DNA of 64,000 bases from Zootoca vivipara (lineage: Eukaryota): NCBI RefSeq assembly GCF_963506605.1, contig NC_083288.1:29574001-29638000 (forward strand). Direction: 5' to 3'. How positions within the stretch are numbered: position 1 is the stretch's first letter; the number at the start of each line of letters is the position of its first letter. Of the stretch, positions 359-64,000 are shown one piece after another. A program made the translations under genes and the position numbers. The notes below the pieces were generated by a model. The model saw only the letters and a list, made by a program, of their open reading frames with translations, was not told where the DNA came from and ran no database searches.

Positions 359-397
359 ATAATTAATGACTATGGTCTCAAAAGATGGCAAAGAGAG

Positions 398-2483
398 GGC
401 TTCCGGTCCAGCGCCAGCGCCGATCGGCGGGGTTTTTGTCTCGCTCTGAGGGGGGAGGGCAGCGAGAGCAATGCTGCACCCCATAGAACCTCGGGTCGAG
501 CGTCCCGGGGGCAAAATCGCTCAGTGGAGCCCCAATCCGGACTTCCCAACTCTCCGGTTGCCCTAGTAAGAGCGCCGGAGCGAGAAGGGTCGAAGTCGCG
601 GGGGCCATTTTGAGCACCATCGTTGCTCTAGCGGAGAGGAGCTCCGAGCCGGAGGCGGAGAGTGCTGGATTCTTCCAAAAGAAAGAATTGAAAATTAAGA
701 CTGTAAGTAAGCTTCTAAAAATTGGATTTGAAATTAATTTGGACTTGGGAGAGAGGGAAACAAAACGGAAGCCACCCCCTCCCATCGGTAATCCAAGAAA
801 CAGTAAATAAATACCCGAAGCCGGGAATTGAAGATTTTGGTTTAAAAGGTATCCTCAAAGACGCAAAAAAGTTCTCCCCTGGATGCAGGGTAAAAGGGGA
901 GAAGGACAGTGGTTATTGATCCCCTGCAGAAAGACGAAAAAGAATTAGGAAAACCTTTTGTTTCCCCGGGATCCGGCAGCCCAGACAGCCCAGCGAGCTG
1001 ACTAGGATTTATAAATGAACTTTCTTATTTAGACTTTTTAGAATTTTTGTGTACATGCTTTTGATATATTGGCTTGGATCTTTATATACTATGAGCTGGA
1101 AAATGCAGCCAGTTTGTTAAAATGAGGCTGGGAAAATAAGCAGCGACCATTTTCCACCCCACATGATAAGTAGTGACCTTGACAAGACTGAACTATGTCA
1201 ACAAAAAGGTATTCGCCTGAGTTCCAGCGAAGTGTTTTGACAACCCTGTGGGAAGTAAGAATAGGACTATGCCGAGATGAGACTCAACAGCAAGAGTTAA
1301 AGCAGCAATTCCAGATGGTGATTGCTAAATATGACTTTTCAGATGATGAAGGTACTGAAATTGAAGGGGAAGACAGTGACAATGACAGCGACAGCGATTT
1401 GGAAGACTTTGACAATGAAGGAGACTGTGATTTGGAGTGTAAAGATAATAATGATGACTGTGATAATACAACACAAAATGAAGCTCACCATGAAGGAAAA
1501 GATGATTTTTTTCCCACAAAAGGATAAGCAGAATACTCCTCTTTCGAGGAGGGAGTGACAGGAACAAGTGGAATTTCAGATTACCGACAAGGAGAAAGAC
1601 AAGAACAACCCAAGAAGGGGAGAAACTCAGGGGGGCCTTATGGATGCCTGGAGGGCAAACCATTGGAAAAAGGGGGTGAGATGAAGGGAGAATGGGTGGG
1701 TGATCAATAGGATGGATTATCAGGATTAAAACTGGACTGCTGACCACGGAACTTGCTGGATTGGAGGGAGGTAGCCGGAGATTGGGGAAGAAAGGTTATA
1801 TTGGGAATTGCTAGAGTGTAAATGAGATTTGATTATGGAAAAAGTTTAAGCTAAGGAAGTTTATTGAGGGGGGAAATTAGGCAAGGGAAGAAAAATTGGA
1901 TTTGGAATTATAAGGATTAAGAGATTTGGTGAAAATGATAATAGTTAAGTTTAAAAGTTTTATGAGGAATAAAAGTAATTATTTTATAGATAAGGAAACT
2001 GTTAAAGAGGATAATAAAGGGATGAAAACCGGGGAAGGGGGGAGGTAGGGGAAGCCCACAAAACATGGTTTATTAATGTTGATTTGAAAAAGATTATTTT
2101 TGTTTTTATTTTTCTTTTCTTTATATTTTCTTTTTTGTCGTTTTTTTCTATTTCTTCTTCTGCATTCTTTTTCTTCTTCTTTTTTAGTATAGATTTTTCC
2201 TTTTTGGTATGAGAATGGAAGGTTGGGTGGTTGTCTTCCTGCTTTCTGACCTGACCCCCTAGAGCTTTCTGGTGGCAGGAGGGGGCTTTGGGGTGGGGGA
2301 GGGGGAGGGGGACTTAAACCCAACCATAAAATGGACCACCTTCAACTGTTCGCCTGCATGGGATTCTCCTGTGGCAGGAGAGGGCCCAAGGAAGGGGGGT
2401 GGAAAGAAGGTGGAAAATCTGTTTATGTAAGTACCGTGTTTGTAACCTGTAAAATTAATAAAAATTATGAATAAATAAAAAAA
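398..2483 (+). mobile_element. ~2.1-kb non-autonomous L1-type retroposon inserted into an older L1
   Basis: TSD caaaagatggcaaaga(g/t)ag at 379-397 and 2484-2502; empty site at ~49989-50007; GC-rich 5' end starting CTTCCGGT; AATAAA and A-rich tail; no RT. Confidence 0.85.
1195..1527 (+). CDS. 110-aa ORF (helical N-terminus, Asp/Glu-rich tail) inside the non-autonomous retroposon
   Basis: ATG-initiated open frame; N-terminus resembles the ORF at 22940-23251 in the related element. Confidence 0.45.
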   Translation: MSTKRYSPEFQRSVLTTLWEVRIGLCRDETQQQELKQQFQMVIAKYDFSDDEGTEIEGEDSDNDSDSDLEDFDNEGDCDLECKDNNDDCDNTTQNEAHHEGKDDFFPTKG

Positions 2484-2502
2484 CAAAAGATGGCAAAGAT
2501 AG

Positions 2503-7400: not shown

Positions 7401-7650
7401 GGGGGGGGGGAGAATACTTAGCAGTAACTTATTTTAAGATAAGGGTGCATTATCTATATGGAGTTTAAAGCTAAATTCTCCTTTAGATGAAGATTTATTA
7501 TTACACCGTTTTTTTCACGTCTTTCTTTTAAATCTACATCCCACAAAAACCACACCCAAATCAGTATTGGATAACAAGTATTTGTTATCAGAAGAGGACT
7601 TAAACCTATGCTTGTCTTCCTGTTTTCTTCTAGAAGCAGCAATCATTTTA

Positions 7651-8631
7651 ATGATGAATGCAAAGATAGGCAATGAATCCTCTGTCTCTGAATTTCTACT
7701 CCTGGAGTTTTCAGCTGTACGGGAACTGCAGATTCTACACTTCTTTCTGTTCCTGTTATTGTACCTGGCAACTGTATTTGGGAATCTTCTCATCATCTCT
7801 GCTGTAGCTTTTGACCACCACCTTCACACTCCCATGTACTTCTTTCTGGTGAACCTGGCCATACAGGACATAGGGGCTGTTTCAGTCACCATCCCCAAAT
7901 CCATGGCCAATTCTCTCATGAATATCAGACACATATCTTATGCTGGATGTGTTGCTCAAGTGCTTTCATTATTTTTCTTTGCATCATCTGATGTCGCCCT
8001 TCTTACAGTCATGGCGTACGATCGCTATGTTGCCATTTGCAATCCCTTACAATATGAAATGGTGATGAACAAGGCAGCCTGCAAACAAATGGTTGCTGGT
8101 GTGTGGGTTGCTGGCCTTCTCAATGCAGTCATGCACACTAGTGCAACTTTTGCAACCCCTTTCTGCTCAAACATTGTCAATCAGTTTTTCTGTGAGATCC
8201 CACAGTTAATTACACTTGCCTGCTCTAATTTATACCTTACAGAAATTGGAGTCTTGTTGGTGAGCATTACATTTGTGTTTGGATGTTTTGTCTTCATTGT
8301 TGTCACTTATGTGCACATTTTTACTGCAGTTCTGAAACTCCCTTCTGTACAGGGAAGGAAAAAGGCTTTCTCCACTTGCATACCCCACCTTGTTGTCTTC
8401 TCTGTGTTTTGTTTCACAGCATCTTTTGCTTACTTTAGGGTTCCCTCTAAATCTCCATCAGACCTGGACTTTGCATTAACTGTGATATATAGTCTTGTAC
8501 CACCCATGTTCAATCCAATAATCTATAGCATGAGAAATAAAGAGATTAAAAGTGCTTTATCAAAGCTGTTCGGTTTGAGGCATTCTTCTCTGGATATATC
8601 TTCCAAGCTTGTTCTGAAAAGGTATAATTAA
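7651..8631 (+). CDS. Olfactory receptor, class II family-14-like, intact (326 aa)
   Basis: LHTPMYFFL, MAYDRYVAIC, FFCEIPQL, KAFSTCIPHL and PPMFNPIIYSMRN motifs; N-glycosylation site NES; ATG follows a polypyrimidine/AG acceptor at 7633. Confidence 0.95.
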   Translation: MMNAKIGNESSVSEFLLLEFSAVRELQILHFFLFLLLYLATVFGNLLIISAVAFDHHLHTPMYFFLVNLAIQDIGAVSVTIPKSMANSLMNIRHISYAGCVAQVLSLFFFASSDVALLTVMAYDRYVAICNPLQYEMVMNKAACKQMVAGVWVAGLLNAVMHTSATFATPFCSNIVNQFFCEIPQLITLACSNLYLTEIGVLLVSITFVFGCFVFIVVTYVHIFTAVLKLPSVQGRKKAFSTCIPHLVVFSVFCFTASFAYFRVPSKSPSDLDFALTVIYSLVPPMFNPIIYSMRNKEIKSALSKLFGLRHSSLDISSKLVLKRYN

Positions 8632-12300: not shown

Positions 12301-12500
12301 TGGAGCCACTACCAGTGAATCAGTCAAAGACCTCACTAATCAAACAGGGATATTATAGAATCATAGAATCATAGAATCATAGAGTTGGAAGACACCACGA
12401 GGGCCATCCAGTCCAACCCCCTGCCAAGCAGGAAACACCATCAAAGCATTCTTGACATATGGCTGTCAAGCCTCTGCTTAAAGACCTCCAAAGAAGGAGA

Positions 12501-14006
12501 GTGAAGTCAAATGGGCCTTAGAAAGCACTGCTAATAACAAGGCCAGTGGAAGTGATGATATTCCAGCTGAACTATTTAAAATTTTAAAAGATGATGCTGT
12601 TAAGGTGCTACACCCAATATGCCAGCAAGTTTGGAAAACTCAGCAATGGCCAGAGGATTGGAGAAGATTAGTCTACATCCCAATTCCAAAGAAGGGCAGT
12701 GCCAAAGAATGCTCCAACTACCGCACAATTGCGCTCATTTCACACGCTAGCAAGGTTATGCTTAAAATTCTACAAGGCAGGCTTAGGCAGTATGTGGACC
12801 GAGAACTCCCAGAAGTGCAAGCTGGATTTCGAAAGGGCAGAGGAACCAGAGACCAAATAGCAAACATGCGCTGGATTATGGAGAAAGCTAGAGAGTTCCA
12901 GAAAAACGTCTACTTCTGCTTCATTGACTATGCAAAAGCCTTTGACTGTGTCGACCACAGCATACTATGGCAAGTTCTTAAAGAAATGGGAGTGCCTGAT
13001 CACCTCATCTGTCTCCTGAGAAATCTCTATGTGGGACAAGAAGCTACAGTTAGAACTGGATATGGAACAACTGAGTGGTTCAAAATTGGGAAAGGAGTAC
13101 GACAAGGTTGTATATTGTCTCCCTGCTTATTTAACTTATATGCAGAATTCATCATGCGAAAGGCTGGACTAGATGAATCCCAAGCCGGAATTAAGATTGC
13201 CGGAAGAAATATCAACAACCTCAGATATGCAGATGACACAACCTTGATGGCAGAAAGCGAGGAGGAATTAAAGAACCTTTTAATGAGGGTGAAAGAGGAG
13301 AGCGCAAAATATGGTCTGAAGCTCAACATCAAGAAAACCAAGATCATGGCCACTGGTCCCATCACCTCCTGGCAAATAGAAGGGGAAGAAATGGAGGCAG
13401 TGAGAGATTTTACTTTCTTGGGCTCCTTGATCACTGCAGATGGTGACAGCAGTCACGAAATTAAAAGACGCCTGCTTCTTGGGAGAAAAGCAATGACAAA
13501 CCTAGACAGCATCTTAAAAAGCAGAGACATCACCTTGCCGACAAAGGTCCGTATAGTTAAAGCTATGGTTTTCCCAGTAGTGATGTATGGAAGTGAGAGC
13601 TGGACCATAAAGAAGGCTGATCGCCGAAGAATTGATGCTTTTGAATTATGGTGCTGGAGGAGACTCTTGAGAGTCCCATGGACTGCAAGAAGATCAAACC
13701 TATCCATTCTTAAGGAAATCAGCCCTGAGTGCTCCCTGGAAGGACAGATCGTGAAGCTGAGGCTCCAATACTTTGGCCACCTCATGAGAAGAGAAGAATC
13801 CTTGGAAAAGACCCTGATGTTGGGAAAGATTGAGGGCACTAGGAGAAGGGGACGACAGAGGACAAGATGGTTGGACAGTGTTCTCGAAGCTACGAACATG
13901 AGTTTGACCAAATTGCGGGAGGCAGTGCAAGACAGGAGTGCCTGGCGTGCTCTGGTCCATGGGGTCACGAAGAGTCGGACACGACTAAACGACTAAACAA
14001 CAACAA
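12501..14006 (+). mobile_element. RTE-BovB LINE, 5'-truncated, with an open RT frame (12605-13996)
   Basis: [49 protein letters not shown]; (CAA)n tail; TSD caaagaaggaga at 12489-12500 and 14007-14018. Confidence 0.95.
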
Positions 14007-14688
14007 CAAAGAAGGAGACTCCACCACACTCCTTGGTAGCAAATTCCACTGCCGAACAGCTCTTACTGTCAGGAAGTTCTTCCTAATGTTTAGGTGGAAT
14101 CTTCTTTCTTGAAGTTTTAATCCATTGCTCCGTGTCCGCTTCTCTGGAGCAACAGAAAACAATCCTTCTCCTTCCTCCATATGACATCCTTTCATATATT
14201 TGAACATGGCTATCATATCACCCCTTAACCTTCTCTTCTCCAGGCTAAACATACCCAGCTCCCTAAGCCGTTCCTCATAAGGCATCGTTTCCAGGCCTTT
14301 TACCATTTTGGTTGCCCTCTTCTGGACACGTTCCAGCTTGTCAGTATCATTCTTGAACTGTGGTGCCCAGAACTGGACACAGTACTCCAGGTGAGGTCTG
14401 ACCAGAGCAGAATACAGTGGTACTATTACTTCCCTAGATCTAGATGCTATACTCCTATTGATGCAGCCCAGAATTGCATTGCCTTTTTTAGCTGCTGCAT
14501 CACACTGCTGACTCATGTCAAGTCTGTGGTCTACGAAGACTCCTAGATCCTTTTCACATGTACTGGTCTCAAGCCAGGTGTCTCCCATCCTGTATTTGTG
14601 CTTTTCATTTTTTTTTTGCCCAAGTGTAGTACTTTACATTTCTCCTTGTTAAAATTCATCTTGTTTGCTTTGGCCCAGTTGTCTAATC

Positions 14689-16063
14689 CAGGGGTTCCCA
14701 ACAAAATTTTCTCAAGGACCCCTCATCGAGCCGCTATTGTGACAAGGACCCCCATTAATTCCTAATCCTATTAATTCCTAATCCTATTAATTCCATTCTG
14801 ACACAGATGCATTGCAGGCAGGGGGTTGGGCTAGATGACCTCAGAGCCCTTTCAGTGATAGGCTGCTGACGACATGGGCCATGGGCCCGATCCAGCAGCT
14901 GGGATCTTCAATTTTGGCTGTTTAAGATAGTATCTTAAATCCATTCGGGGGCTCCCCTTCTTGCCCGCCTCTCTCTCTGTGCCTCCCTAACCCCCGTCTC
15001 TCTCTCTCTCTCCGCCCTCTCTTTGCAGGCTCCCATCCCCGCGTCGGCCTGCGGATGGCGCTCTTTTCGCAATGCCTGGAGCCCACGGGCTTCCTGCAGT
15101 TGCTGCGCTCCCTGGCGCTGGGCGCGGCGTCGCAGCTGCGGGGCTCGGCGACGGCGGAGGAGTCCGCCTTCGTCCGCCGCAAGCTGGCGCTGCTGGAGCG
15201 TGACCTGGCTGCCGGGCCGGGGTTGTCGCTGGACGGCGCGGACGAGCTGGGCGCGGGCGAGGACTGCGTGTCGGCCGCCTTCCAGCAGCTGGCTCTGGCG
15301 GTGCGCGCGGCTGGCACGGCATCGGCGGTGCGCGAGACCGAGCTCTTCGTGGCCGCGTGCGCGCGCGAGAAGCTGGAGCGGCGCCTGCTGGCTGCGTGGC
15401 GGCGCGTGCAGGGCTGCAGGGTGGCGGCGCAACGGCCCTTGCTGGCGCGTGCCGTCGAGGAGCACCGGCCACGGAGGCCTGAGATGGCGGGCGTGTGCCA
15501 GAAGCTGAACGCGCTGCTGGGCGCAGGGCTGCTGTGCCTGCTGTGCCAGGCGGGCCTCACCCAGCGCGACCCGGCGCTGCTGCTGGCCGTCTGGGAAGAG
15601 CGCGTGGGCGCCGTGCACCGGCACATGAAGGAGGCGCTGGCCGCCTGCGCCCGCTACTTCCTCGAGCAAGCGCAGGACAATGTCGGGCGGGCGCTGGCCG
15701 AGCTGCCCGCGGCGGTGCCCCCCGGGCCAGCCGAGCTGGCCTCCAGCGTCCTGCGCAAGCTGGAGCAGAACTACGACTGGCTGCGCTGGGCGGTGATGGC
15801 CTGGCAGGAGGGCGGAGACGGGGCGGGCGGTGAGGAGGTGCCGGCGCGGTCGCGGGGGAAAGGTTCGGCTCCCACGCAGCAGCGGCTGCGGTTTGCGTGG
15901 CTTTCTGCTTGTTTGGGGGCTGATTTGGCGGCGCTAGCACGTTCGCCGAGTTTAGGAGCTCCACGCCGCCATCTTGCCTTGTCGGAAGTCCCAGTCTTGC
16001 GGACCCCTCTCGCATAGCTCGCGGACCCCTGGGGGTCCGCGGACCACCAGTTGGGAAACACTG
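14689..16063. mobile_element. Non-autonomous hAT element carrying captured host DNA (Pack-type)
   Basis: TIR caggggttcccaa / ttgggaaacactg; 8-bp TSD gtctaatc (14681-14688, 16064-16071) splitting the CR1 ORF; termini shared with 26003-26461. Confidence 0.92.
15055..16017 (+). CDS. Captured rapunzel-like ORF (320 aa); the C-terminus is chimeric and runs into the transposon end
   Basis: Strong GC3 codon bias. The RPLL...M...C..L..L...GL..L...W..RV......M.E.L..C pattern and [12 protein letters not shown] resemble rapunzel-like proteins as recalled; not searched. Preceded by a (CT)n tttgcag acceptor at 15028. Confidence 0.7.
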
Positions 16064-17113
16064 GTCTAATCTGTTAAGGTCATTTTGAAGTGTGATCCTG
16101 TCCTCTGGGGTATTAGCCACCGCTCCCAATTTGGTGTCATCTGCAAACTTGCTCAGGATGCCCTCAAGCCCATCATCCAAGTCATTGATAAAGATGTTGA
16201 ATAAGACTGGGCCCAAGACAGAACCCTGTGGCACCCCACTAGTCACTACTCTCCAGGATGAGGAGGAGCCATTGATGAGCACCCTTTGGGTTCGGTCAGT
16301 CAGCCAGTTACAAATCCACTGAATGGTAGCATTGTCTAGCCCGCATTTTACCATCTTCTTTACAAGAATATCATGGGGCACCTTGTCAAAGGCCTTGCTG
16401 AAATCAAGATAGGCTACATCCACAGCGTTCCCTTCATCTAACAGGCTTGTAATTTTGTCAAAAAATGAGATCAGATTAGTCTGACATGACTTATTTTTCA
16501 GAAACCCATGCTGACTTTTAGTGATCACAGAGTTTCTTTCTAGGTGCTCACAGACTGTTTGCTTGATGATCTGCTCTAGAATCTTTCCTGGTATTGATGT
16601 CAGGCTTACTGGGCGGTAATTGTTTGGGTCCTCTTTTTTCCCCTTTTTGAAAATAGGGACAACATTTGCCCTCCTCCAGTCTGCTGGAACTTCGCCTGTT
16701 CTCCAGGAATTATCAAAGATTATTGCCAGTGGTACTGAAATCACCTCTGCCAGTTCTTTTAATACTCTTGGATGTAGTTCATCTGGCCCTGGAGACTTGA
16801 ATACATCTAAACTATTCTTGTACTACCTCCTTACTTGTTCTGGGCTGTGTTTCCCCTGCTGAATCATCTGCTCCATATTCTTCAGGTCGGGCATTGTTTT
16901 CTTTTTTGGAGAAGACTGAGGCTTCAAGCTGTTAAGGTATCCTGGACCTAAAGTTTTCCTTTAGATGAAGATTTATTATTACACTATTTTGTTCACTTCT
17001 TTTTTAAAAATCTGCATCCCACAAAAATCACATCCAAAGCAGTATTGGATAACAAATATTTGTTATCAGAAGAGGAATTAAATATATGCTTGTCTTCCTG
17101 TTTTCTTCTAGTG

Positions 17114-18100
17114 ATGAATGCAAATATTGTCAATGAATCCTCTGTCTCTGAATTTCTACTCCTAGAGTTTTCAGCTGTACGGGAACTGCAGATTCTACAC
17201 TTCTCCCCGTTCCTGGTATTGTACCTGGCAATTGTATTTGGGAATCTTCTCATCATCTCTGCTGTAGCCTTTGACCACCACCTTCACACTCCCATGTACT
17301 TCTTTCTGATGAACTTGGCCATACAGGACCTAGGGGCTGTTTCAGTCACCATCCCCAAATCCATGGCCAATTCTCTCATGAATATCAGACACATATCTTA
17401 TGCTGGATGCATTGCTCAAGTGCTTTCATTCTTTTTCTTTGCATCATCTGATGTCGCCCTTCTTACAGTCATGGCGTATGATCGCTATGTTGCCATTTGC
17501 AATCCCTTACAATATGAAATGGTGATGAACAAGGCAGCCTGCAAACAAATGGTTGTTGGTGTGTGGGTTGCTGGAATTTTCAATGCAGTCATGCACACTA
17601 GTGCAACTTTTGCAACCCCTTTCTGCTCAAACAATGTCAATCAGTTTTTCTGTGAGATCCCACAGTTACTTACACTTGCTTGCTCAAACTTCTACCTAAC
17701 GGAAATTGGAGCTATAGTGGTGAGTATAATACTTGTTTCTGGGTGTTTTGTCTTCATTGTTGTCACTTATGTACACATCTTTACTGTGGTTTTGAACGTT
17801 CCATCTCTTCAGGGAAGGAAAAAGGCCTTCTCCACTTGCATACCTCACCTTGTTGTCTTCTCCCTATTTTGTTTCACAGGATGTTTTGCTTACCTTAGGC
17901 CTCCTTCAAAAACTCCATCTGATGGTGACTTTGCAATAACTTTGATGTATACCATTGTACCACCCATGTTCAATCCAATAATTTACAGCATGAGAAATAA
18001 AGAGATTAAAAGTGCTGTATCAAAGCTCTTGGGTGTGAAGCACTCTTCTATGAATATCTTTTCCAGGCTTTTCCTGAAAAGGTTCCATTTCTCTCTGTAG
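17114..18100 (+). CDS. Olfactory receptor, family-14-like, intact (328 aa)
   Basis: All canonical OR motifs present; closest paralog is 54164-55153. Confidence 0.95.
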   Translation: MNANIVNESSVSEFLLLEFSAVRELQILHFSPFLVLYLAIVFGNLLIISAVAFDHHLHTPMYFFLMNLAIQDLGAVSVTIPKSMANSLMNIRHISYAGCIAQVLSFFFFASSDVALLTVMAYDRYVAICNPLQYEMVMNKAACKQMVVGVWVAGIFNAVMHTSATFATPFCSNNVNQFFCEIPQLLTLACSNFYLTEIGAIVVSIILVSGCFVFIVVTYVHIFTVVLNVPSLQGRKKAFSTCIPHLVVFSLFCFTGCFAYLRPPSKTPSDGDFAITLMYTIVPPMFNPIIYSMRNKEIKSAVSKLLGVKHSSMNIFSRLFLKRFHFSL

Positions 18101-21980: not shown

Positions 21981-22202
21981 ATATATACTGTATATGAAAT
22001 CCTTACTTGGGGTAGTACTATCACAGAATGTGATTAATGACTACAGAAATTTTTAGAAAATTATCAGGTCACAAATAGAAAAAGAGGTGCTGAATATAAA
22101 ACAATTGACACTTTTCTATATGTGAGACCAATATTAGCAGAACAGATCACAAACTCTTAGTCACCATTGCAAGCAAGGCCCTCAAGAATACTACAGATAT
22201 CC

Positions 22203-24213
22203 AGACTTCCGGTCTGCCACGCTGGAAAGAAGACGCAGAGACCTCGAGCTCCGAGGTCTCTGGCATCGCGGAGGGGGGGAAATCCGCGGGGCGCACGGAT
22301 TCCCCAAAAGAACCCCGGGAAGAGCGTCCCTGGGGGCTTAGCAGCCCAGCTGAGCTCCGAAACTTGGCGATTCCTTCGCTGCCCGGGAGGTTCAGTAGAA
22401 CCGGCCGTGAGCCAGCGGAGTGGAGTCGCGGGAGCCATTTTGGGCACCACCGTCACCTCCGAGTAGCGAAGCCCCGAGTCTTCTACCAGCAAGCGGCAGA
22501 TTCTTCTAAAGAAACAAAAGATTTGGACAAAGTAAGTGAAATCTCTAATTGGATTTATCAGAATTTAATCGGAATTTTAGGAAGAGTTTTAAAAAATGGA
22601 AGTCGATCTCTTCCTACTGTGGACTTTAGAGGGGCGAAAATATCCCAAAGCCGAAAGGGAGAAGGACAGTTTCAAAAACTCCAAAGAAAGAAAGCCTTTT
22701 TAACCCCTTCTTGACCTTGGAGCCGGCACCCTACGAGGAGCAGCAAGGCTATTAAGAAATAAATTTGACAGCTGTCAAAAAGGGAAAGGAGAAATTTTCG
22801 TTAAGGACGCTATTTGATATTGGAAGATGTTAAAGAGTTTGAAAAAAGGTTAGCCAAGATGGAGGTAACCGTTCTCAAGGAAGGAAATTTCCAGTGTCTA
22901 CTGTCTTCTAATCTCCATTCTGCTTGTGGTTAAGAAAGAATGTCAACAACCTACTCAGCAGCCTTCCGGCAGACTGTTTTAAACTACTTGGAAATTCTGG
23001 GAGAAATGAGAGATCTCTTAAAGGGACAGGAACAACTTAGTTCACCGTTGACGAATACAGTGGATTATGATCAGGACCAAGACAACATTTTTGAAAAGGA
23101 AAGGGCTCTCAAAAATCAAGAAGAGGATGATGCTCAACAAAAGGTGGAAAAAGAAGAAGATGAATATAAGAGTACCAACACTAGCAGCTTTTGGAATTTA
23201 AGTGAGAAAGCAATCCTTGAGGAGAAGCATCACCCCCCCCCCAATGGATAATGATATTTGAAAATGGGGAGACTGAGGAAAATGGAAAAGAGAGAAGTGA
23301 GATTGAGGGGTGGGAAAAGCAGAGGGAGGGGAACACAGAGACTGGAAGTTTGATTTGGGAAAGACTTGGTGTGGGCTGAAAAAAGTGGTAAATTGGTAAT
23401 TTAGTCTGGCTGAAAAACGGTTCTGAAATCTTGGCTGGATGAAGGATATGCTGTACCAACGGGGGAAAGACTCCGGTGGGAAGAAGAGGGTGTTTAAGAG
23501 AATAATGTTAAGATGTTTGGTTAGAGATCTTAATAATATGTAATAATTGATATTTCTTGTGGGGGGTAGAGGAAGGGCTGGGGGAAAGAAATTTTAGATT
23601 TGTGGAGTAGCAAAGTTATGTTTAGACAGGTAGTTGGGTGGATAGCCACATATCTCCCTCCCTATCGACCTGAAACCTCTGGTGGCAGGGGGGGCTTTGG
23701 GGGGAGGGAGGGGTGGAAGGAAACCCAATTACAAATTAGACCTCCCTTGGAGTGTCGTACCTCATGGGTGCCCCTTGTGGCAGGAGTTTTAAGAATTAGA
23801 ATAGGAAATAAGAATAAGAAACCCGCCATAATTATATTTAAGAATCATGAAAATCAGGAAGAAGGGATCTGAGGAAGTCACAAATATAATGTCTAACAAA
23901 TTAAGAATTTGATATTTTTTTATTTGTTTGTTTGTCTGTCTATTATGCTGAAAGATATAAATGATTGGGGGGTTCCCTATCCCAATCTCTCCTTATTTCT
24001 CGGGGCCTCCTGGTGGCGGGGGGGGGGGTTCAGGAGCTGGGGAGAGGGGGGTGGGGACAAAACCAGCCTTAAAATGGACTACCTTCGACTCTCAACACCC
24101 GCAGGATCCACTTGTGGCAGAAGGGGACTTGTGGGGGGAGGGGGGAGACGGTGGGCAGAAATGTTCTTTTTTAATGTTTTGTCTTTTTGTGTTATTATTA
24201 TTATTATTTTAAA
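22203..24213 (+). mobile_element. ~2.0-kb non-autonomous L1-type retroposon related to 398-2483
   Basis: TSD aagaatact(a/c)cagatatcc at 22184-22202 and 24214-24232; empty site at ~61822; starts gacttccggt; shares 5' and 3' motifs with 398-2483. Confidence 0.85.
22940..23251 (+). CDS. 103-aa ORF (helical N-terminus, acidic tail) in the non-autonomous retroposon
   Basis: MSTTYSAAFRQTVL versus MSTKRYSPEFQRSVL at 1195; same relative position in the element. Confidence 0.45.
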   Translation: MSTTYSAAFRQTVLNYLEILGEMRDLLKGQEQLSSPLTNTVDYDQDQDNIFEKERALKNQEEDDAQQKVEKEEDEYKSTNTSSFWNLSEKAILEEKHHPPPNG

Positions 24214-24305
24214 AAGAATACTCCAGATATCCCCCCACCGCCCCCAAGTAAAATCTATGTGGAGATAAGCAGTGACACTAACTGTGAGGTGGTATGTGTC
24301 AAATG

Positions 24306-26461: not shown

Positions 26462-27644
26462 CTATAGTCTATTGTGTAGAATGGGAAATTGTCCTTGTTC
26501 TAGGTTTCTCCAGAAACCTAATATCGACTGCACATAGAAAAACCAGAGACCTGGTTTCCATGACAAGCAAAGCCAAATTTTGCTCAGTGGGACTGCATAA
26601 ATGTGCAACCTCATGGAGAGAGGATTATAATTGCTTTGCTACTCCATGCTCCTTTGTACAGCCCTCAGAAGCTACAACAGGTTTTGACAGAAAATATGCC
26701 AAGGATGGAGGCTGAACTGCAGCAGTAGCAAAATCGAAGTAATCAAAATCGAAGTAATAACTATCAAAATGTGTGTTGTAAATATGGAGATGATAGCAAG
26801 AGGCATCTGCCCTCTCCACATTTTTTTCTGCAGACGTCCACATAGATAGAAAATATGCCAAGGATGGAGGCTGAACTTCAGCAGTGGCAACATTCATCTC
26901 CAAGTAATTCTGGTTAGCAGCATCTACTATTTTTGAAACAGCAGTAGTTTATTTTTATTTTTTAATTCATGATTTTCAGTTATATACATTTCAATTCAAA
27001 ACTCGAATCTTTCTGTAGTTCCTTGAATTTATTTTTATCATTTCCTGCATATTCTATATTACCTTAACTTATTCTTTTATTCATCTACCTTAATTGTATA
27101 CTCTTATGAAACTGCAGTTTATTATAGTAATCCTGCCAATGTCTTTATCTGTTTACAATTTGTTTGTAAATATTCAATAAACCATTTCCATTCTTTTATA
27201 AAAAGTTCATCTTGATTTCTTATTTTTCCAGTAAATTTCACCATTTCTGCATAGTCCACAAGTTTTTGTATCCATTCTTTCACGAGACTTCCTCTTGCCA
27301 TTTTTGGGCAAATAATATTCTTGCCACTGTAGTAGCATACATGAACAAATTTCTATACTGTTTGGGAAGAGTTGTACTCCTATAATTCCCAGGAGGGGAA
27401 AAAAGGAATACTTAGCAGTAACTTATTTTAAGATAATGGTGCATTATCTATATGGAGTTGAAAGCTAAGTTCTTCTTTAGATGAAGATTTATTATTACAC
27501 CGTTTTTTTCACTTCTTTATTTTAAATCTACATCCCACAAAAACCACACCCAAATCAGTATTGGATAACAAATATTTGTTATCAGAAGAGGACTTAAACC
27601 TATGCTTGTCTTCCTGTTTTCTTCTAGAAGCAGCAATCATTTTA

Positions 27645-28601
27645 ATGATGAATGCAAAGATAGGCAATGAATCCTCTGTCTCTGAATTTCTACTCCTGGA
27701 GTTTTCAGCTGTACGGGAACTGCAGATTCTATACTTCTCTCTGTTCCTGTTATTGTACCTGGCAACTGTATTTGGGAATCTTCTCATCATCTCTGCTGTA
27801 GCTTTTGACCACCACCTTCACACTCCCATGTACTTCTTTCTGATGAACCTGGCCATACAGGACATAGGGGCTGTTTCAGTCACCATCCCCAAATCTATGG
27901 CCAATTCTCTCATGAATATCAGACACATATCTTATGCTGGATGTGTTGCTCAAGTGCTTTCGTTATTTTTCTTTTTATCATCTGATGTCGCCCTTCTTAC
28001 AGTCATGGCATACGATCGCCATGTTGCAATTTGCAATCCCTTACAATATGAAATGGTGATGAACAGGGCAGCCTGCAAACAAATGGTTGGTGGTGTGTGG
28101 GTTGCTGGCCTTCTCAATGCTGTCATGCACACTAGTGCAACTTTTGCAACCCCTTTCTGTTCAAACATTGTCAATCAGTTTTTCTGTGAGATCCCACAGT
28201 TACTTACACTTGCCTGCTCTAATCTCTACCTAGTAGAAATTGGAGTCTTGTTGCTGAGCATAGCATTTGCGTTTGGATGTTTTGTCTTCATTGTTGTCAC
28301 TTATGTGCACATTTTTACTGCAGTTCTGAAACTCCCTTCTGTACAGGGAAGGAAAAAGGCCTTCTCCACTTGCATACCCCACCTTGTTGTCTTCTCTGTG
28401 TTTTGTTTCACACCATCTTTTGCGTACCTTAGGCTTCCCTCTAAAACTCCATCTGACCTGGACTTTGCATTAACTGTGATGTATACCATTGTCCCACCCT
28501 TGTTCAATCCAATAATTTACAGCATGAGAAATAAGGAGATAAAAAATGCTTTATCAAAGCTGTTGGGTTTGAGGCAATCTTCTCTGAAAAGGTATAATTA
28601 A
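27645..28601 (+). CDS. Olfactory receptor, family-14-like, open (318 aa; DRH variant)
   Basis: OR motifs present; MAYDRHVAIC; 24-bp in-frame deletion in the C-tail relative to 7651-8631. Confidence 0.92.
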   Translation: MMNAKIGNESSVSEFLLLEFSAVRELQILYFSLFLLLYLATVFGNLLIISAVAFDHHLHTPMYFFLMNLAIQDIGAVSVTIPKSMANSLMNIRHISYAGCVAQVLSLFFFLSSDVALLTVMAYDRHVAICNPLQYEMVMNRAACKQMVGGVWVAGLLNAVMHTSATFATPFCSNIVNQFFCEIPQLLTLACSNLYLVEIGVLLLSIAFAFGCFVFIVVTYVHIFTAVLKLPSVQGRKKAFSTCIPHLVVFSVFCFTPSFAYLRLPSKTPSDLDFALTVMYTIVPPLFNPIIYSMRNKEIKNALSKLLGLRQSSLKRYN

Positions 28602-46693: not shown

Positions 46694-49600
46694 TAATAAT
46701 AATAATAATAATTTATTATTATTATTTATACCCCGCCCATCTGGCCGGGTCTTCCCAGCCACTCTGGGCGGCTTCCAACAGAAGAATAAAACACAATAAT
46801 CTATTAAACATTAAAAGCCTCCCTGAACAGGGCTGCCTTCAGATGTCTTCTAAAAGTCTGGTAGTTGTTTTCCTTTTTGACATCTGTTGGGAGGGCGTTC
46901 CACAGGGTAGGCACCACCACTGAGAAGGCCCTCTGCCTAGTTCCCTGCAACTTGGCTTCTCGCAACGAGGGAACCGCCAGAAGGCCCTCGGTGCTGGACC
47001 TCAGTGTCCGGGCAGAACGATGGAGGTGGAGACGCTCCTTCAGGTATACTGGACCAAGGCCATTTAGGGCTTTAAAGGTCAGCACCAACACTTTGAATTG
47101 TGCTCGGAAACGTACTGGGAACCAATGTCGATCTTTCAAGACCGGTGTTATGTGGTCTCGGCGGCCGCTCCCAGTCACCAGTCAAGCTGCCGCATTCTGG
47201 ATTAGTTGCAGTTTCCGGGTCACCTTCAAAGGTAGCCCCACATAGAGTGCATTGCAGTAGTCCAAGTGGGAGATAACTAGAGCATACACCACTCTGGCTA
47301 GACAGTCTGCAGGCAGGTAGTGTCTCAGCCTGCGTACCAGATGGAGCTGATAGACAGCTGCCCTGGACACAGAATTGACCTGCGCCTCCATGGACAGCTG
47401 TGAGTCCAAGATGACTCCCAGGCTGCACACCTGGTCTTTCAGGGGCACAGTTACCCCATTCAGAACCAGGGAATCCTCAACACCTGCCCGCCTCCTGTTC
47501 CCCACGAACAGTACTTCTGTCTTGTCAGGATTCAATCTCAATCTGTTAGCCGCCATCCATCCTCCAACCGCCTCCAGGCACTCACACAGGACCTTCACTG
47601 CCTTCACTGGTTCTGATTAGAAAGAGAGGTAGAGCTGGGTATCATCCGCATACTGATGAACACCCAGCCCAAACCCCCTGATGATCTCTCCCAGCGGCTG
47701 CATGTAGATGTTAAAAAGCATGGGGGAGAGGACAGAACCCTGAGGCACCCCACAAGTGAGAGCCCAGGGGTCTGATCACTCATCCCCCACCACCACTTTC
47801 TGAACACGGCCCAGGAGGAAGGAGCGGAACCACCGTATAACAGTGCCCCCAGCTCCCAAGCCCTCTAGATGGTCCAGAAGGATGTTATGGTCGATGGTAT
47901 CAAAAGCCGCTGAGAGATCCAGCAGGACTAGGAAGCAGCTCTCACCTTTGTCTCTAGCCCACCGGAGATCATCAACCAGTGCGACCAGGGCCGTTTCAGC
48001 CCCATGATGAGGCCTGAATCCTGACTGGAAGGGATCCAAATGGTCTGCTTCTTCCAGGCGTGCCTGGAGTTGTTCAACAACCACTCGCTCAATCACCTTG
48101 CCCAAGAATGGAAGATTTGAGACTGGGCGATAGTTGGCCATATTGGCCGGATCTAAAGATGGTTTTTTAAGAAGCGGTTTAATAACCGCCTCTTTCAGCG
48201 GGTCTGGGAAGGCTCCCTCATGGAGAGAAGCATTTACCAACCCGCGAAGCCCATCGCCCAGCCCTTCCTGGCTAGCTTTTATAAGCCAGGATGGGCAAGG
48301 ATCAAGGAGACAGGTGGTTGGTTTCACTCGTCTAAGCAGCCTGTCCACATCCTCGGAGGTAACAAATTGAAATTGATCCCATGAAACACGACTAGACAGG
48401 GCTCCAGCACTCTCCCGCCCCGGCCCTGCTCCCACGGTGGAGTCTGCCTCCCTCTGAATCTGAGTGACTTTATCTGCAAAAAAACTTTGCAAAAGCATTA
48501 CAGGAGATATTGGGGTCCCTACCAGGTCCTGATGACGAAGGTGGTTCAGATAGATTGCGAACCACCTGGAACAGTCTCCTGCTGCTGTTTTCTGCAGATG
48601 CAATAGAAACGGTGAAGAAGGTCCTCTTTGACGTCGCCATTGCCACTTGGTAGGCTCGAAGTTGAGCTCTAGCCTGTGTTCGGTCGGATTCTCAACGACT
48701 GTTTCATCGCCCTCAGCTCCGGGGAAAACCACAGGGTTGTCCCAGCTCCATGCAATCGGAGAGGGCGCTTCGGAGCCAAAGAGTCAATAGCCCTGGTTAA
48801 CGCCACATTCCAGCGGGCCACCAGGGAATCGGCTGAGAGGCCATCAACATGGGATAAGACATCCCCTACCACTCTCTGAAAACCATTTGGATCCATTAAG
48901 TGGTGGGGGTGGACCATCCAAATAGGTCCCACCTCCCTGCAGAGGGGAAGGGTCGCGGAGAAGTCCAGTTGCACCAGGTAGTGATCTGACCATGGCACTT
49001 TGTTAGTTTCGCTTTTACTTAGTGTCAGATCACCACCATCCATAGAGGTAAACACCAGGTCCAAGGCATGTCCGCGGCTATGAGTTGGGCCAGACTTATT
49101 CAGGGACAGCCCCATGGAGGCCATGCTTTCCACGAAGTCCCGAGCGGCTCCTTGTAAGGTCGTGTCTGCATGGATGTTAAAATCCCCTAAGACAACCAGG
49201 CCAGGTGTCTCCAGGAGCACATCCGACATGACCTGAAGTAGCTCGGGCAGGGAATCCTTGGTGCAGCGGGGAGGTCGGTACACCAAAAGGAACCCTGTGC
49301 TGCCCCTATTGCCCAACTTCCAGAACATGCACTCAGAAAACCTGGTCTCACCAATAGGACGCCTGGTACAAACTAATGACTTCCTAAAAATCACTGCAAC
49401 CCCCCTCCCCACCCAGATGGCCTGGGTTGCTGTGCATAAGAGAAACCTGGTGGACAAGCAGCGGCAAGGACAGGCGCATCTGCTTCATCCAGCCAGGTCT
49501 CTGTCACACATGCCAGGTCAAAGCCTCCATCCACAATCAGGTCGTGGATGGCAGTGGTCTTGTGGATCATTGACCTGACATTGCACAGCAGCACCTTCAG

Positions 49601-49772: not shown

Positions 49773-51230
49773 TTTGAGATCAACAAAAAAGTTAAATATT
49801 TAGCAATATGGCTAACAGTTATATATATATATATGAAAAAGTGTGGTTGGAGGTAAAAGAAATTTGGAAATATTGAGCAAAATGAATCTTTCTCTACTAG
49901 GAAGAATTGTGGTGATAAAAATGAATGTGCTACCAAAAATGTTCTTTCTTTTCCAGACGGTTGCAATAATGATTAAGGACTATGGTCTCAAAAGATGGCA
50001 AAGAGAGATTTCCAAATTTGTCTGGGAGGGCAAAAGGCCAAGGATTAAACATAAAATACTTACATATATAAAAGAAAGAGGCTTTGCTCTCCCGGACCTA
50101 AAATTGTATTAGGAGGCCACATGTTTGGTATGGATTAGGAACTGGATAAAACTGGAAAAGGAGGAAGCTTTAGATTTAGAACGTCATGATAATAGATATG
50201 GGTGGCCATACCTTTGGTATGGGAAAGGGAAGGTGCTTAAAGGATTTTATAATCATATAATTAGGAGATCATTGATGAAAATTTGGGAAAGCTACAGGGA
50301 CTTAATAGAGGGGGGGGGGGAACCACCCTGGTGGTTATCACCAATTGAAGCTTCACTGCTCAAACCACTTGGCAATAAAGGGAAAAAAATGGTCTATATA
50401 TAAAGAGATACTGAGAGATCAAGAAGGCAAATGTAAATTGAAAGAATATGATGAAATATAAGGCTATGTTCAGAGTTGGTTACATTGCAGACAATTAAAT
50501 GAGATGTATAAGGAAGCCAACAAAAAAGGGCTTAGCTATACAAGCTACATATTCCAAAAAGAGGTTATAGAAGAAGATGGGAAGCTGTTGAAGAAGGCTT
50601 ATAGTATTTTGTTAGAGTGGGAAACAAAAGATGAAGAGGTCAAATCAGTTATGATTAAATGGGCACAAGATTTCGGACACACTATACAATTTGAAGATTG
50701 GGGAAAGTTATGGAGAGTAAATTTGAAATTCACAGATTGTTCCTTGCTGAAAGAATATTATACGAAAATGATGTACAGATGGTATATTGCACCAGTTAAA
50801 ATGGTAAAAATGTACAAAACTGGATCAAACATATGTTTGAAATGTAAAGAAAAAGATGGAACTTTTTATCATATGTGGTGGGAATGTAGAGAAGTCAAAA
50901 AATATACAAACATACAAATTATGTGAAAAGGACAATTTGGAATTCAAGGAAGAATGGGAACTATTTACAAACTATTTGGAGAAACAACTTCATTGGCAGG
51001 ATTTGAATAAACATGCACAATTTCTTATTAGAACAATGTAAACAATTAGGGAAATGAGATGTATAATTTTAAAACATGCAGAAACAATATGTAAAAATAA
51101 ATCAGAGAAGGGAGCAGAGGGAAGTCTGGGAAGGGGGGAAGGGAGAAAATGTAGTTGTTGTAGCATTGATGAATTGCATTGGTTTAATATTGATAAATAA
51201 AATTTAAAAATAAAAAATAAAAATAAAAGT
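49773..51230 (+). mobile_element. L1 3' fragment, paralog of 359-4135 without the nested insertions
   Basis: LSLLGRIVVIKMNVLPK...FALPDLKLY; high similarity to 2503-4135; internal deletion near 50903. Confidence 0.88.
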
Positions 51231-52351: not shown

Positions 52352-54163
52352 GATATAATTCCTGAAGTAATGGCTCAGTAAGTCATACACTTGACCTCGT
52401 TGGTGTTGCCATGGTAACAAAGTGCACCTGACACCCTTATCTCAGAACATACAGACACGGGGTATTTACACTGTGTACAGGACTCAGATTGTCAAGTATT
52501 CAAATGCAACAGAAAGCATCTACTTCAGACATCATAAAAGGGAGGAAAGAATGGCAGAAGTAGGAGGAACACAGTGGGGGCGGGATAGTGAGCTAGTCCT
52601 ATCTCACACCAGTATTTTAAATATTATATAGTAAATTGTTTTTAAACGGGATGGTTTATTTACATACCTTGATTATTTGTGTTAGTCCCATAGGGCAAAG
52701 TCTTTTAAAAAACACCATGGTTGTTTTGTGTGGGACTCCTGAGTCCAAGCATCCAGAAACACAATTGCTAATTTGTTTGGGGCTCTTGAGATCAAACTCC
52801 CAGGAACATAAATAGAATAATAGTAATAATTTTCCACCCAATGGTATAAGCATCGTGCTGCAAGTGTATACAAACATTTTCACTGTCTCAGAAGAAAAGG
52901 AGGGAGAGATTTAGAAAGAAAATGTTCCATGAGTAGCTAGAAGAATACAGAACATCTTAAAGTGATGAAGAAATTGCATCTGGAAATCTATTTTCTAAAA
53001 AGGAAAAGAGTAAGGTGTTTATATTTTTATAGCATTAGTGATACCTGGATAGCTTTTGGAGAGCAAAATGCAGACAATACTACTATACTATAGTCTATTG
53101 TGTAGAATGGGAAATTGTCCTTGTTCTAGGTTTCTCCAGAAACCTAATATCGACTGCACATAGAAAAACCAGAGACCTGGTTTCCATGACAAGGTAAGCC
53201 AAATTTTAGCTCAGTGAGACTGCATAAATGTGCAACCTCATGGAGAGAGGATTACAATTGCTTTGCTACTCCATGCTCCTTTGTACAGCCCTCAGAAGCT
53301 GCACCAGGTTTTGATAATCCAAACCAGGACTAATGGTTAGCCTCTCTCATACCCAAACGTGAGCTGCAACCAAGAACAAACGTTCACTTCAGCTCCTAGT
53401 GAGTGAGGAGAGAGCTTCAGCACTTCATTTGGCTTGGCTTGGCTTGGCTTGGCTGGGCTTGGTTTATCATAGTGTGGCAGCAAAAAGATCTGGGAAGCAG
53501 CAAAGCAGCTGTAAGCTTCTCTACAAGAGCTTATACATTTCTACATTCAGTTGGTACATACATATATGCACAGTGGACATTAAGATTAGAAACATACAAC
53601 AAAGATTAAAACAGTTGAAACCTCTGTGATCTCAGCTAGGAAGGAGTTGCAAAGCATCGGACCCAGAATACTGAATGCATGCCTCCTGGGAAGTAGGAGC
53701 TATGTGTCTGAGCCATGTGGAGCCACTACCAGTGACTCAGTCAAAGACCTCACTGATCAAACAGGGATATTAGGAATCAAGCTGTTAAGGTATCCTGGAC
53801 CCAAGTTGTGATAGCCATTGCAGTGGACATTAACAAACAAAATGTGAATTTGAGTAGCATACATGAATAAATTTCTATATTGTTTAGGTAAAGTTCTATT
53901 CCAATCATTCCCAGAATATAAAATATTTCTTAGCAGTAACTTATTTTAAGATAATGGTGTGTTATCTATGTGGAGGTGAAAGCTTAGTTTTCTTTAGATG
54001 ACGATTTATTATTACACCGTTTTGTTCACTTCTTTTTTAAAAAAATCTGCACCCCACAAAACTCACATCCAAAGCAGTATTGGATAACAAATATTTGTTA
54101 TCAGAAGAGGACTTAAACCTATGCTTGTCTTCCTGTTTTCTTCTAGAAGCAGCAATCATTTTA

Positions 54164-55161: not shown

Positions 55162-56035
55162 CACGGGTGTCAAACACAAGGCCCGGGGGCCAAATCCGGC
55201 CCGCCAGACCTCGTCATGTGGCCCGCCGAGCGCCCCAGCCAGCAGGACCCAGCAGCGGGACCTTGCTGCTGAAGCGCCGCTGCCGACAAAGCGCCGACAA
55301 ACAGCTGGGGCCAGGGGGGTAGAAAGGCGGCCGGAGCAGCGCTGCGTGGAGCGCCCCAAGCCACAGCAGGAGAAGGAGGAGGCAGCTTGCCGGGTCAGCG
55401 CCCGGCAGCGCTGTGCAGAGAGTCCCGAGCCTCTGGGACGCAGCAGTGCTCTGTAGCACTTTGAATCCTCCTCCTCCTGCCACGGCTCGGCGCCTGGAAA
55501 TGGTTGCTGCTGCTGCTGCTGCTGCTGAAGCACAGACAGAGCACCCAGCAGCGCCGCATGGAGGAGGAGGAGGATTCAAAGTGCTACAGTGCACTGCTGC
55601 GTCCCAGAGGCTCGGGACTCTCCACACGGCGCTGCCGGGCACCGACCTGGCAAGCCGCTGCCTCCTCCTCCTCTTGCCTCACCTCCTCCTCCTCCTGAAC
55701 GTGAGCTCAGCAGCGGCTCAGCCTCATGAACGTGCAACTCTGAGGCTTCATGCACTTCTCCTAAAACGGACACCCGCTGCCTCACGCTGCACGGGAAATG
55801 CTTTTTGCCCCTGGGTCCCTTCGCGCTCTTTTCTGGCGCTGAATCAAGGCAGCGACCCCCCCCCTTCCCTTTCTTTCTTCCTCTCTCTCGTTCTTATTCT
55901 TTCTTTCCCTCTCCTTCCTTCCTTCTTTATCTCTGTCTTCTCTCCCTCTTTCTTTTTCTTTCCTTCTTTATTCCTTCTTTCCTACTCTTCTTTCTCTCAC
56001 CTCTTTCCTTCCTCTCTCCCTCCTGCTCCCTCTTT

Positions 56036-56088
<53 letters not shown>

Positions 56089-60705: not shown

Positions 60706-60754
<49 letters not shown>

Positions 60755-61626: not shown

Positions 61627-64000
61627 CTGTATATTAAATCCTTACTTGGGGTAGTACTATCACAGAACGTGATTAATGACTACAGAATTTTTTTGAAAAT
61701 GATCAGGTCACAAATAGAAAAAGAGGTGCTGAATATAAAACAATTCACATTTTCTATATGTGAGACCAATAGTAGCAGAACAGATCACAAACTCTTAGTC
61801 ACCATTGCAAGCAAGGGCCTCAAGAATACTCCAGATATCCCCCCCACCCCCCCGGCCCAAGTAAAATCTATCATATTTCGTTAGAGTTTCCACCTGGTTG
61901 AAATTTAGTGGTAGCTCATGCATTGCCCAGAGCTTTTAGCACAGTGGAGATAAGCAGTGAGACTGACTGTGAGGTGGTATGTGGCAAATGATAGTTTAAA
62001 AATGGCCAGTCTCTACAAGTGCATGGACTGAACTGAGATAGGGCAAAAGAATACTCTTCAGATGGTTATATGGGCCATCTCTACAGGTGAGTCAGCCCAC
62101 AGAATGTCAAATCCATACACTGATCCTACAGTTAAGACTCATGGTAACTGACGGGGTAATATTTAAAGGAGAAATTCTAGACCCCAATAGCTTCAGACTA
62201 GTGCAGTGGTGTGCGGTCATTGGACTAAGGGGACTAGGCTAGTCCTCTAAATGTTCCCCTGGTGCCTCCTTCCCAAAGCCCAGGAAGCTTCTGCCAAGCT
62301 TAGGGAAGGAGGTACGAGGCTCCAATGGGTCCAACATCTATCCTGCCATCTTCCCAAAGCCCATCTGGCTTTTGGAAGGAGACAGGAGGGCTCCAGCAGC
62401 TTGGCAGAGCCCTACTACCACCTTCACATTGTGACCTAAGCTTCTGCCCAGCTGAGGGATGGAGGTGCAATGCTCACATGCCTGACATCAGGACATCACA
62501 ACATCACACACATGATATTGACCCCTCCCAATGCCCTTTGGAAGTTAGTGCCTCTGGCCCTAGCTCTTCCCCTATGAGAAATTTCACCGCATGCCACTGG
62601 AATAGTAGGCTCGATGAAAGCAAATTAAAAATTATAAAGGATTTGCTGAAAAATGCCTTTGACTCCAAACAAATGTTTATTTGGCATCACAAAATGACTG
62701 GACCATGTAACTAGAAAAAGGAAAATCCCCTGCTAAGCTCTTCTTCAATAGAAAACTCAGGACCAGACTACAATGTGCAGAATACCTGAAATGTGACTTA
62801 ACACAAGGCATTCAGTCTCAGATACAAAAGAAATGGAGACAAAAAATGTATGATGTCATAGAGTTATAAGCACAAATCCCATTACAACCAAAGGTGACCG
62901 TCAAAATGCATGATGGTATCATATGGACACATAGGTTCTCTTAACAAAACAGTAACTTCCAGATCATATCAAATACAGGACTCAGTTTGTCAAGTATTCC
63001 AATGCAACAGAAAGGATCTACTTCAGATATCATAAAAGGGAGGAAAGAATGGCAGAAGTAGGAGGAACACAGTGATGGTGGGATAGTGAGCTAGTCATAT
63101 CTCACACCAGTATTTTAAATATTATATAGTAAGTTGTTTTGAAACAGGATGGTTTATTTACATACCTTGATTATTTGTGTTAGACCCATAGGGCAAAGTC
63201 TTTAAAAAACCACCATGGTTGTTTTGTGTTGGACTCCTGAGTCCAAGCTTCCAGGAACACAATTGCTAATTTGTTTGGGGCTCTTGAGAGCAAACTCCCA
63301 GGAACATAAATAGAATGATAATAATAATTTCCCACCCAATGGTAAAAGCATCGTTCTGCAAGTGTATACAAACATTTTCACTGTCTCAGAAGAAAAGGAG
63401 GGAGAGATTTAGAAAGAAAATGTTCCATGAGTGGTTAGAAGAATACAGAACATCTTAAAGTGATGAAGAAATTGCATCTGGAAATCTATTTTCTATAAAG
63501 GAAAAGAGTAAGGTGTTTATATTTTTTTATAGCATTAGTGATACCTGGATAGCTTTTGGAGAGCAAAATGCAGACAATACTACTATATTATAGTCTATTG
63601 TGTAGAATGGGAAATTATCCTTGTTCTAGGTATCTCCAGAGGATTACAATTGCTTTGCTACTCCATGCTTTTTTGTACAGCCCTCAGAAGCTGCACCAGG
63701 TTTTGATAATCCAAACCAGGCCAGGACTAATGGTTAGCCTCTCTCATACCCAAACCTGAGCTGCAACCAAGAACAAAACTTCACTTCAGCTCCTAATGAG
63801 TGAGGAGAGGGCTTCAGCACTTCATTCGGTTTGGCTTGGCTTGGTTTATCATAGTGTGGCAGCAAAAAGATCTGGGAATCAGCAAAGCAGCTGTAAGCTT
63901 CTTTACAAGAGCTTATACATTTCTACATTCAGTTGGTACATACATATATGCACAGTGGACATTAAGATTAGAAACATACAACAAGAATTAAAACAGTGGA
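61627..64000 (+). repeat. Start of the next OR duplication unit (paralog of 21988-26700 without the young insertions)
   Basis: Colinear similarity and a promoter block at ~63180-63515; suggests another OR beyond the window. Confidence 0.8.

Follow-up and report, generated by a model that had tools for sequence, protein, structure and literature searches.

The window analyzed here, i.e., the whole stretch of 64,000 nucleotides from Zootoca vivipara (assembly size, 1.44 Gb), contains a tandem cluster of genes that we take, from their MAYDRYVAIC motif, to be olfactory-receptor-like. Five such frames are open on the forward strand (7438-8631, 16952-18100, 27462-28601, 37821-38993, and 54041-55153), and a split copy lies at 44951-45871. 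A very recent inverted duplication, 99.4-99.8% identical, occupies 55162-56840 and 59929-61626 and includes an internal palindrome (55366-55677), and a GC-rich (73%) stretch on the reverse strand at 14926-16017 carries a 363-aa open frame that is unique within the window and is possibly a retrocopy or an exon. Reverse transcriptase (RT)-bearing fragments, which presumably resemble RTE/BovB, CR1, and L2, are found at 12482-13996 on the forward strand and at 13965-14633, 15557-16822, and 46804-49484 on the reverse strand. This article is focused on two related retroposon copies within the cluster, copy 1 (lineage A, 398..2483) and copy 2 (lineage B, 22203..24213); both copies, their target sites, and all of their features described below are read on the forward strand.

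Both copies bear the marks of insertion that the original prediction had claimed, i.e., a target-site duplication of 19 bp and an empty counterpart elsewhere in the window. The 5′ duplication of copy 1 (379..397) lies within an old L1 ORF2 fragment and is repeated with one mismatch at 2484..2502, and at the empty site (49989..50007) the target occurs once and the ORF2 fragment is uninterrupted. The duplications of copy 2 (22184..22202 and 24214..24232) likewise differ by one mismatch, and a single copy of the target is present at the empty paralogous site (61822..61840). The claim that the insertions followed duplication of the surrounding unit is firm for copy 2, whose flanks are approximately 95% alike to the empty site on both sides, but only likely for copy 1, because its left flank matches over approximately 40 bp only, whereas the right flank is alike for approximately 1.9 kb (91-96%). 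No RT or endonuclease (EN) frame was found inside either copy, as had been stated. All the shared blocks named earlier were located in colinear order in both copies, and global alignment of the two gave a score of 816 against 532 ± 24 for 30 local shuffles (maximum 594), at an aligned identity of 52.6%. The copies are much closer to other family members: copy 1 is 95.5-95.9% identical to its two closest sisters, and copy 2 is 95.0% identical to its nearest sister. Their description as full length holds overall, although copy 1 has a 20-bp gap near +49 and copy 2 has lost the terminal AATAAA; a 3′ block occurs twice in copy 2 and once in copy 1.

Multi-copy expansion, which had been set beforehand as a test, is evident from searches of the genome, which returned 1246 (A, 5′ end), 1313 (A, 3′ end), and 1028 (B, 5′ end) first-look candidates, i.e., more than 1,000 for each of the main lineages A and B; these figures are not copy numbers, with 40 candidates scored and 20 matches fetched per search. 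Among matches picked via the 5′ end, 19 of 20 in lineage A span the whole length and 20 of 20 in lineage B extend to the 3′ end; some of these copies contain later insertions or have a deletion. The 20 picked via the 3′ end comprise 13 complete copies and seven with a truncated 5′ end, and a same-strand piece of the ORF2 C-terminus adjoins none of the seven. In 48 of the 58 copies with a located 5′ start, an exact target duplication of at least 11 bp (median, 17 bp) directly follows the poly(A) signal, compared with 0 of 58 control anchors. A C or T precedes the duplication in 41 of the 48, followed by A-rich sequence, where the A tail blurs the boundary. Such duplications with an A tail are the marks of L1-type target-primed insertion, and dependence of the element on L1 is likely on the basis of these marks.

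Five lineages (A-E) of 1.8-2.3 kb were found, none of which contains RT or EN. Lineage C (2.3 kb) was reached from a loose end of RNA reads, and a reading of that end as a splice at the donor-like site described below was rejected when it proved to be lineage C itself. Lineage D and one E copy were revealed by flank scans. Searching with the protein of the E frame brought up 59 matches; among the 20 fetched, a target duplication surrounds 1.77-1.98 kb in four and the hairpin module described below is present in 11, and six E copies share a mutual identity of only 57-72%. Within lineages, subfamilies are nested, and the closest pairs share 99% identity in A, 99% in C, and 97% in B; nested subfamilies with pairs at 98-99% imply successive source elements. 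The original prediction of a long-lived, diversified parasite of L1 is supported: the insertion marks are of L1 type, the CpG-island 5′ end is related to that of L1, and the subfamilies reach down to 99%-identical pairs. The element has no Pol III head and is not a SINE: a pair of A and B boxes is absent from the four copies inspected, which contain 15-24 TTTT runs. Full-length copies also occur inside or beside other family copies, across lineages too (L061:3513-5596 and L067:3985-6060; neighbors at L025, L047, L049, and L064). On the 9.3-Mb contig C18 (G000:C18:5547742-6974685), eight clustered copies that have one and the same score and share a shortened 108-aa open frame were probably amplified via segmental duplication. 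Locus L041 holds an internally deleted B copy of 916 bp, without the reading frame and with a 19-bp target duplication, and the deletion may predate or postdate insertion.

The 5′ region of copy 1 (398..730), which starts with GGCTTCCGGT, is a CpG island (GC 0.58, CpG observed/expected 0.95) related to the 5′ untranslated regions (UTRs) of lizard clade-1 L1, and is predicted to be an internal Pol II promoter. A motif GCCATTTT, which we take to be of YY1 type, lies at 604..611 (22434 in copy 2) and recurs at about +225 in lineages A-D, being absent from E. Pairwise alignment of the first 450 nt of the element with L1 5′ UTRs gave 111.5 versus 43.9 ± 6.9, and with an element 5′ profile at a cut-off of E ≤ 1e-4, four of 13 L1s were matched, and none of the 13 when reversed. 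Potential helpers are present in the same genome, i.e., intact young 6.3-kb L1s with an ORF1 of 352 aa and an ORF2 of 1249 aa, together with many related families, and no specific helper L1 family was picked out. The four longest intact L1s are 98.5-99.4% alike and start with (GGA)CTTCCGGT, and the 5′ terminus of the sampled L1s is the one described for clade 1 of lizards, given as GACTTCCGG in the available text of Boissinot and Sookdeo (2016; PMC5381506). On the evidence of sequence, the element is L1-derived at its 5′ end.

The element is nevertheless set apart from L1 in this very region. Trees built on the first 470 and 340 nt place 21 elements (A-E) apart from 14 autonomous L1s with full support (100/100), where the L1 sample is of clade-1 type only and related to one query. 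Three mixed groupings of elements and L1s were rejected (p-AU of 1e-92, 2e-4, and 5e-4), in a tree without outgroup and with groups named after an earlier tree had been seen. Because the element 5′ ends group apart from all 14 sampled L1s, the possibility that would have undone the original prediction, namely chance deletions arising independently in two ordinary L1s, does not hold. The L1-3′UTR-like motif that had also been claimed, a purine block AAACC...GGGGAAG followed by a T-rich tract (2026..2200), resembles L1 at the level of motifs, recognized by eye only, but a 3′ profile match to L1 does not exceed the reversed control. Among the L1 5′-UTR loci examined (L072, L094, L095, L096, L098, and L109), several clade-1 families carry a pyrimidine tract and AG directly 5′ of the ORF1 ATG and some carry GTAAG at about +270-280, other families having no acceptor or donor; this sequence pattern suggests that some autonomous clade-1 L1s have a 5′-UTR intron.

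A donor-like site of the form GT(A/G)AGT is also present in the element. The GTAAGT noted earlier at 703..708 in copy 1 and at 22532 in copy 2 is indeed conserved, at about +325, in nearly all A-C copies, but its use was not observed. Three RNA runs (about 6% of each) yielded 29-130 reads per run, mostly partial, from related lineages and on both strands, the strand being derived from one chimeric read set. Sense reads cover the leader between the donor and the ATG, and no donor-to-ATG joint was seen at this low depth. A search for spliced genomic copies with two exact junction patterns, one subfamily each, gave 0 matches, a weak negative. At L021:1367 and L113 (G000:C13:3517403), 13 and 12 RNA reads from two runs join an antisense AG of the element to a unique genomic stretch with a GTAAGT donor at its end, which would fit exon use of an antisense copy; since no copy is present in the next 60 kb of the assembly, the copy concerned may be farther away or polymorphic.

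The original prediction had also mentioned a short open reading frame, which is present in both copies but whose importance was underrated: a frameshift has shortened the family frames of 162 and 144 aa to products of 110 and 103 aa, respectively. In copy 1 the family frame spans 1195..1684 (ATG at 1195, stop at 1527 after 110 aa) and in copy 2 it spans 22940..23379 (ATG at 22940, stop at 23251 after 103 aa), and the frameshift lies in a homopolymer run in both. Intact frames comprise 161-165 aa in A, 138-144 aa in B, and 130-134 aa in C; they start at an ATG 740-830 nt into the element and stop after GVG, and the E frame ends alike. With all aligned copies counted, the frame is kept in 25 of 29 copies in A and in 12 of 18 in B, with five different in-frame lengths per lineage, whereas equal-sized non-coding windows are in frame at a mean of 0.32 in A (14 windows, maximum 0.52) and 0.38 in B (18 windows, maximum 0.61). 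Maximum-likelihood omega, obtained for intact frames only, is 0.49 in A (24 copies) and 0.54 in B (nine copies), and the three frames give 0.50/1.6/0.74 and 0.55/1.5/0.76, respectively, which is the usual coding pattern. The family frame has the lowest omega among the 12 frames tested per lineage, the nine non-coding control frames ranging over 0.62-1.29 (A) and 0.61-1.24 (B). When internal and terminal branches are separated roughly, via shared and singleton variants, synonymous changes are in excess among the shared variants of A (p = 0.002), whereas those of B give a ratio of 0.85 that is not significant (p = 0.18). Among distant pairs of A, the first 40 codons have a dN of 0.095 versus a dS of 0.298. 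The frame is under selection, which is real but moderate, because control frames reach 0.62 (A) and 0.61 (B) and the shared variants of B are not significant.

The encoded small protein is predicted by AlphaFold to consist of two confident N-terminal helices and a disordered acidic remainder. Between lineages, protein identity is only about 20-33%; an F..VL helix and the GVG stop recur, and the hydrophobic helix pattern, with an invariant or nearly invariant F, persists from A to E. Homology to ORF1p was not detected: HHalign gave probabilities of 0.1% and 0.7% against 11-21 clade-1-type ORF1p sequences, the best ORF1p profile score was 4.2 bits versus a shuffled maximum of 4.8, and neither RRM nor C-terminal domain (CTD) similarity was seen. 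A genome search with Pfam Transposase_22 gave no match, and its controls were likewise silent. No homologous protein was found in Pfam at the cut-off, in a collection of 5.8 billion sequences, or among 1.84 billion representatives; a fold search gave no match at E ≤ 0.001, and the ESM Atlas (P0001) gave no usable match. CHCH-type leads from the ESM Atlas (P0003, under 0.9) were rejected, since only lineage E has the cysteines.

The conserved motifs near the 3′ end, whose location had been stated correctly, had not been recognized as the tips of two long predicted stems. In copy 1 this twin-hairpin module occupies 2229..2414, with tips GGTGGCAG (2271) and TGTGGCAG (2370), and is followed by AATAAA signals and a short A-rich tail (2456..2483). 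Copy 2 has two modules, at 23639..23820 (tips at 23681 and 23776, the 3′ arm of the second hairpin being lost in a 47-bp gap) and at 23970..24157 (tips at 24012 and 24113). The E module lies upstream of the L1-like 3′ UTR, B and C have a second module downstream of it, and A retains the last module only. Single modules have a folding z of -2.8, and across 29 modules 92.9% of cells are paired, compared with 46-67% when the structure is slid, with double changes in 12 of 22 pairs. This covariation is support and not proof, since the alignment that gave the structure also served to assess it and its rows are related. Whereas the stems drift, the GUGGCAG tip hardly varies. The module was not found in 40 L1-bearing loci, and the hairpin is not in Rfam, where copy 1 has no match and copy 2 has three weak ones. 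CNGG(N)-loop elements (HBV PRE, ZCCHC14-TENT4) are described with a CNGGN pentaloop in the available text of PMC11055085; identity with such loops was rejected, as CNGG occurs at only 91 of 164 hairpin tips and the constant part is GUGGC(A/G).

Several known systems share parts of this organization. The SVA and LAVA elements of apes are Pol II passengers of L1 of about 2 kb with structured RNA parts, and SVA is non-coding and a composite of Alu, VNTR, and ERV sequences. The lizard element is likewise a probable Pol II passenger of about 2 kb with predicted structured RNA parts; unlike SVA, it has no VNTR and has a selected frame. As far as the available sources describe it, mammalian HAL1 (half-L1) is similarly L1-derived, non-autonomous, and Pol II-type, lacks ORF2, and carries one long-kept selected frame, which in guinea pig was kept for 29-44 Myr (PMC3627910); its own multi-copy amplification, L1-type target duplications, and A tail are also shared. 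However, HAL1 encodes ORF1p, whereas the lizard frame is about half that size and has no detectable RRM/CTD or ORF1p homology, the lizard element adds the twin-hairpin module, and its host is a reptile. Bipartite non-autonomous LINEs and SIDEs (Bov-A, RIME, NARTc, RTESINE, and Persaeus), as portrayed in parts of PMC5786205 and PMC6740152, combine LINE 5′ and 3′ parts without RT and are trans-mobilized; those without an ORF are known, in the same portions of these sources, only from RTE, Ingi, Vingi, and R2 (PMC5786205), plus CR1 (PMC6740152). The lizard element, likewise without RT and probably trans-mobilized, is L1-related, 2 kb long, and coding (omega of about 0.5). With clade-1 L1 of lizards, as presented in the available text of PMC5381506, it shares the 5′ terminus, a long CpG-rich 5′ UTR, AATAAA with an A tail, and the T-rich 3′ tract, but it lacks ORF1p and ORF2p, its 5′ ends form their own group, and its leader measures about 720-850 nt versus 1.3-1.7 kb. 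No description of such a reptile family was found in the open-access literature searched, although supplements, subscription papers, Repbase, or Dfam may contain one, and the available part of PMC6050309 holds nothing on such an element. New here, relative to that literature, are a selected frame without detectable ORF1p homology and a covarying twin hairpin, both on an L1-related reptile retroposon.

Taken together, these data show a coding, L1-related retroposon that is not autonomous and has a long history of its own, and they make it probable that both copies belong to a single old, multi-lineage family with an L1-related 5′ end and a selected frame of 130-165 aa, likely copied in trans by L1 ORF2p. 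The best reading is a HAL1-like, Pol II, L1-mobilized parasite whose protein differs from ORF1p, in which we infer the roles of the protein and the hairpins. In the proposed mechanism, transcription by Pol II, driven by the CpG-island 5′ end, would very probably begin at GGACTTCCGG, as it does in clade-1 L1 of lizards, and yield an RNA with a cap and a poly(A) tail. The unspliced RNA would be the form that is copied, and the conserved donor is likely a promoter-proximal U1 site and not part of a used intron, a step we favor with some reserve. With high confidence, a helper ORF2p is expected to prime on the poly(A) tail at Y/A-rich targets. For the small protein, probably a remnant of the coiled-coil start of ORF1p joined to an acidic tail, the proposed role is to dock the RNA that encodes it onto helper L1 particles; the hairpins with GUGGCAG tips would offer a protein-binding site that helps docking or stabilizes the RNA. 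Taken jointly, protein docking, the ORF1p remnant, and the hairpin binding site are advanced tentatively; the remnant rests on position and composition, as ORF1p homology was not found.

Other explanations bear on different parts of this reading. It is quite possible, and about as likely as the adaptor role of the protein and hairpins, that the protein sequence hardly matters and that translation itself is what is needed, through ribosome loading, escape from decay, or nearness to nascent ORF2p. Most of the protein is predicted to be disordered, lineages share little amino-acid identity (about 20-33%), and conservation of the frame exceeds that of amino acids, all of which would agree with a requirement for translation alone; the hydrophobic helix pattern with its invariant or nearly invariant F, which persists from A to E, and the low dN relative to dS in the first 40 codons of distant A pairs argue for a constrained product. 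An ordinary HAL1, i.e., an ORF1-only L1 derivative whose helper ORF1 lies outside the sample, or a family already in Repbase or Dfam, is considered unlikely. The frame does occupy the position of ORF1 behind an L1-type 5′ UTR, and the start of the ORF1p coiled coil is where the weak HHalign match lies, but a frame of 130-165 aa compares with 326-385 aa in the sampled ORF1p, similarity to RRM/CTD and matches in protein collections were not found, and HAL1 is defined by encoding ORF1p in the available text of PMC5753468.

If ordinary L1s had undergone internal deletions independently, or if the copies had been retrocopied from a host gene or an lncRNA, this would account for the low likeness of copies 1 and 2 (52.6%) and for their mRNA-like RNA ends. 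Such an origin is largely refuted and highly improbable, given nested subfamilies with 98-99% pairs that imply successive sources, the grouping of all lineages together and apart from L1, a common hairpin module missing from the sampled L1 loci, and elements that start with the L1 clade-1 terminus. The preferred reading of an L1-mobilized parasite with its own protein may be extended further: the family would then represent a third kind of non-autonomous LINE that carries no ORF1 and yet does not lack an ORF, namely an ancient L1 parasite that encodes an adaptor protein of its own, distinct from ORF1p, bears a dedicated twin hairpin with GUGGCAG tips, uses both to break the cis preference of L1 and capture helper particles, and may also restrain L1 in lizards. 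This extension is speculative and regarded as doubtful.

To our knowledge, Alu is the main case in which it is understood how passengers reach L1 ORF2p in spite of cis preference. The family described here is a reptile passenger that has persisted across no fewer than five deep lineages while conserving two devices that can be separated, i.e., a small protein and a pair of covarying hairpins, and because intact young helpers and passengers share one genome, the question of access is directly testable in a standard retrotransposition assay. Furthermore, the family would fill a gap in the scheme set out in the available text of PMC5786205, where L1 yields only ORF1-bearing derivatives, and with probably thousands of copies it may be mislabeled in the repeat annotation of lizards.
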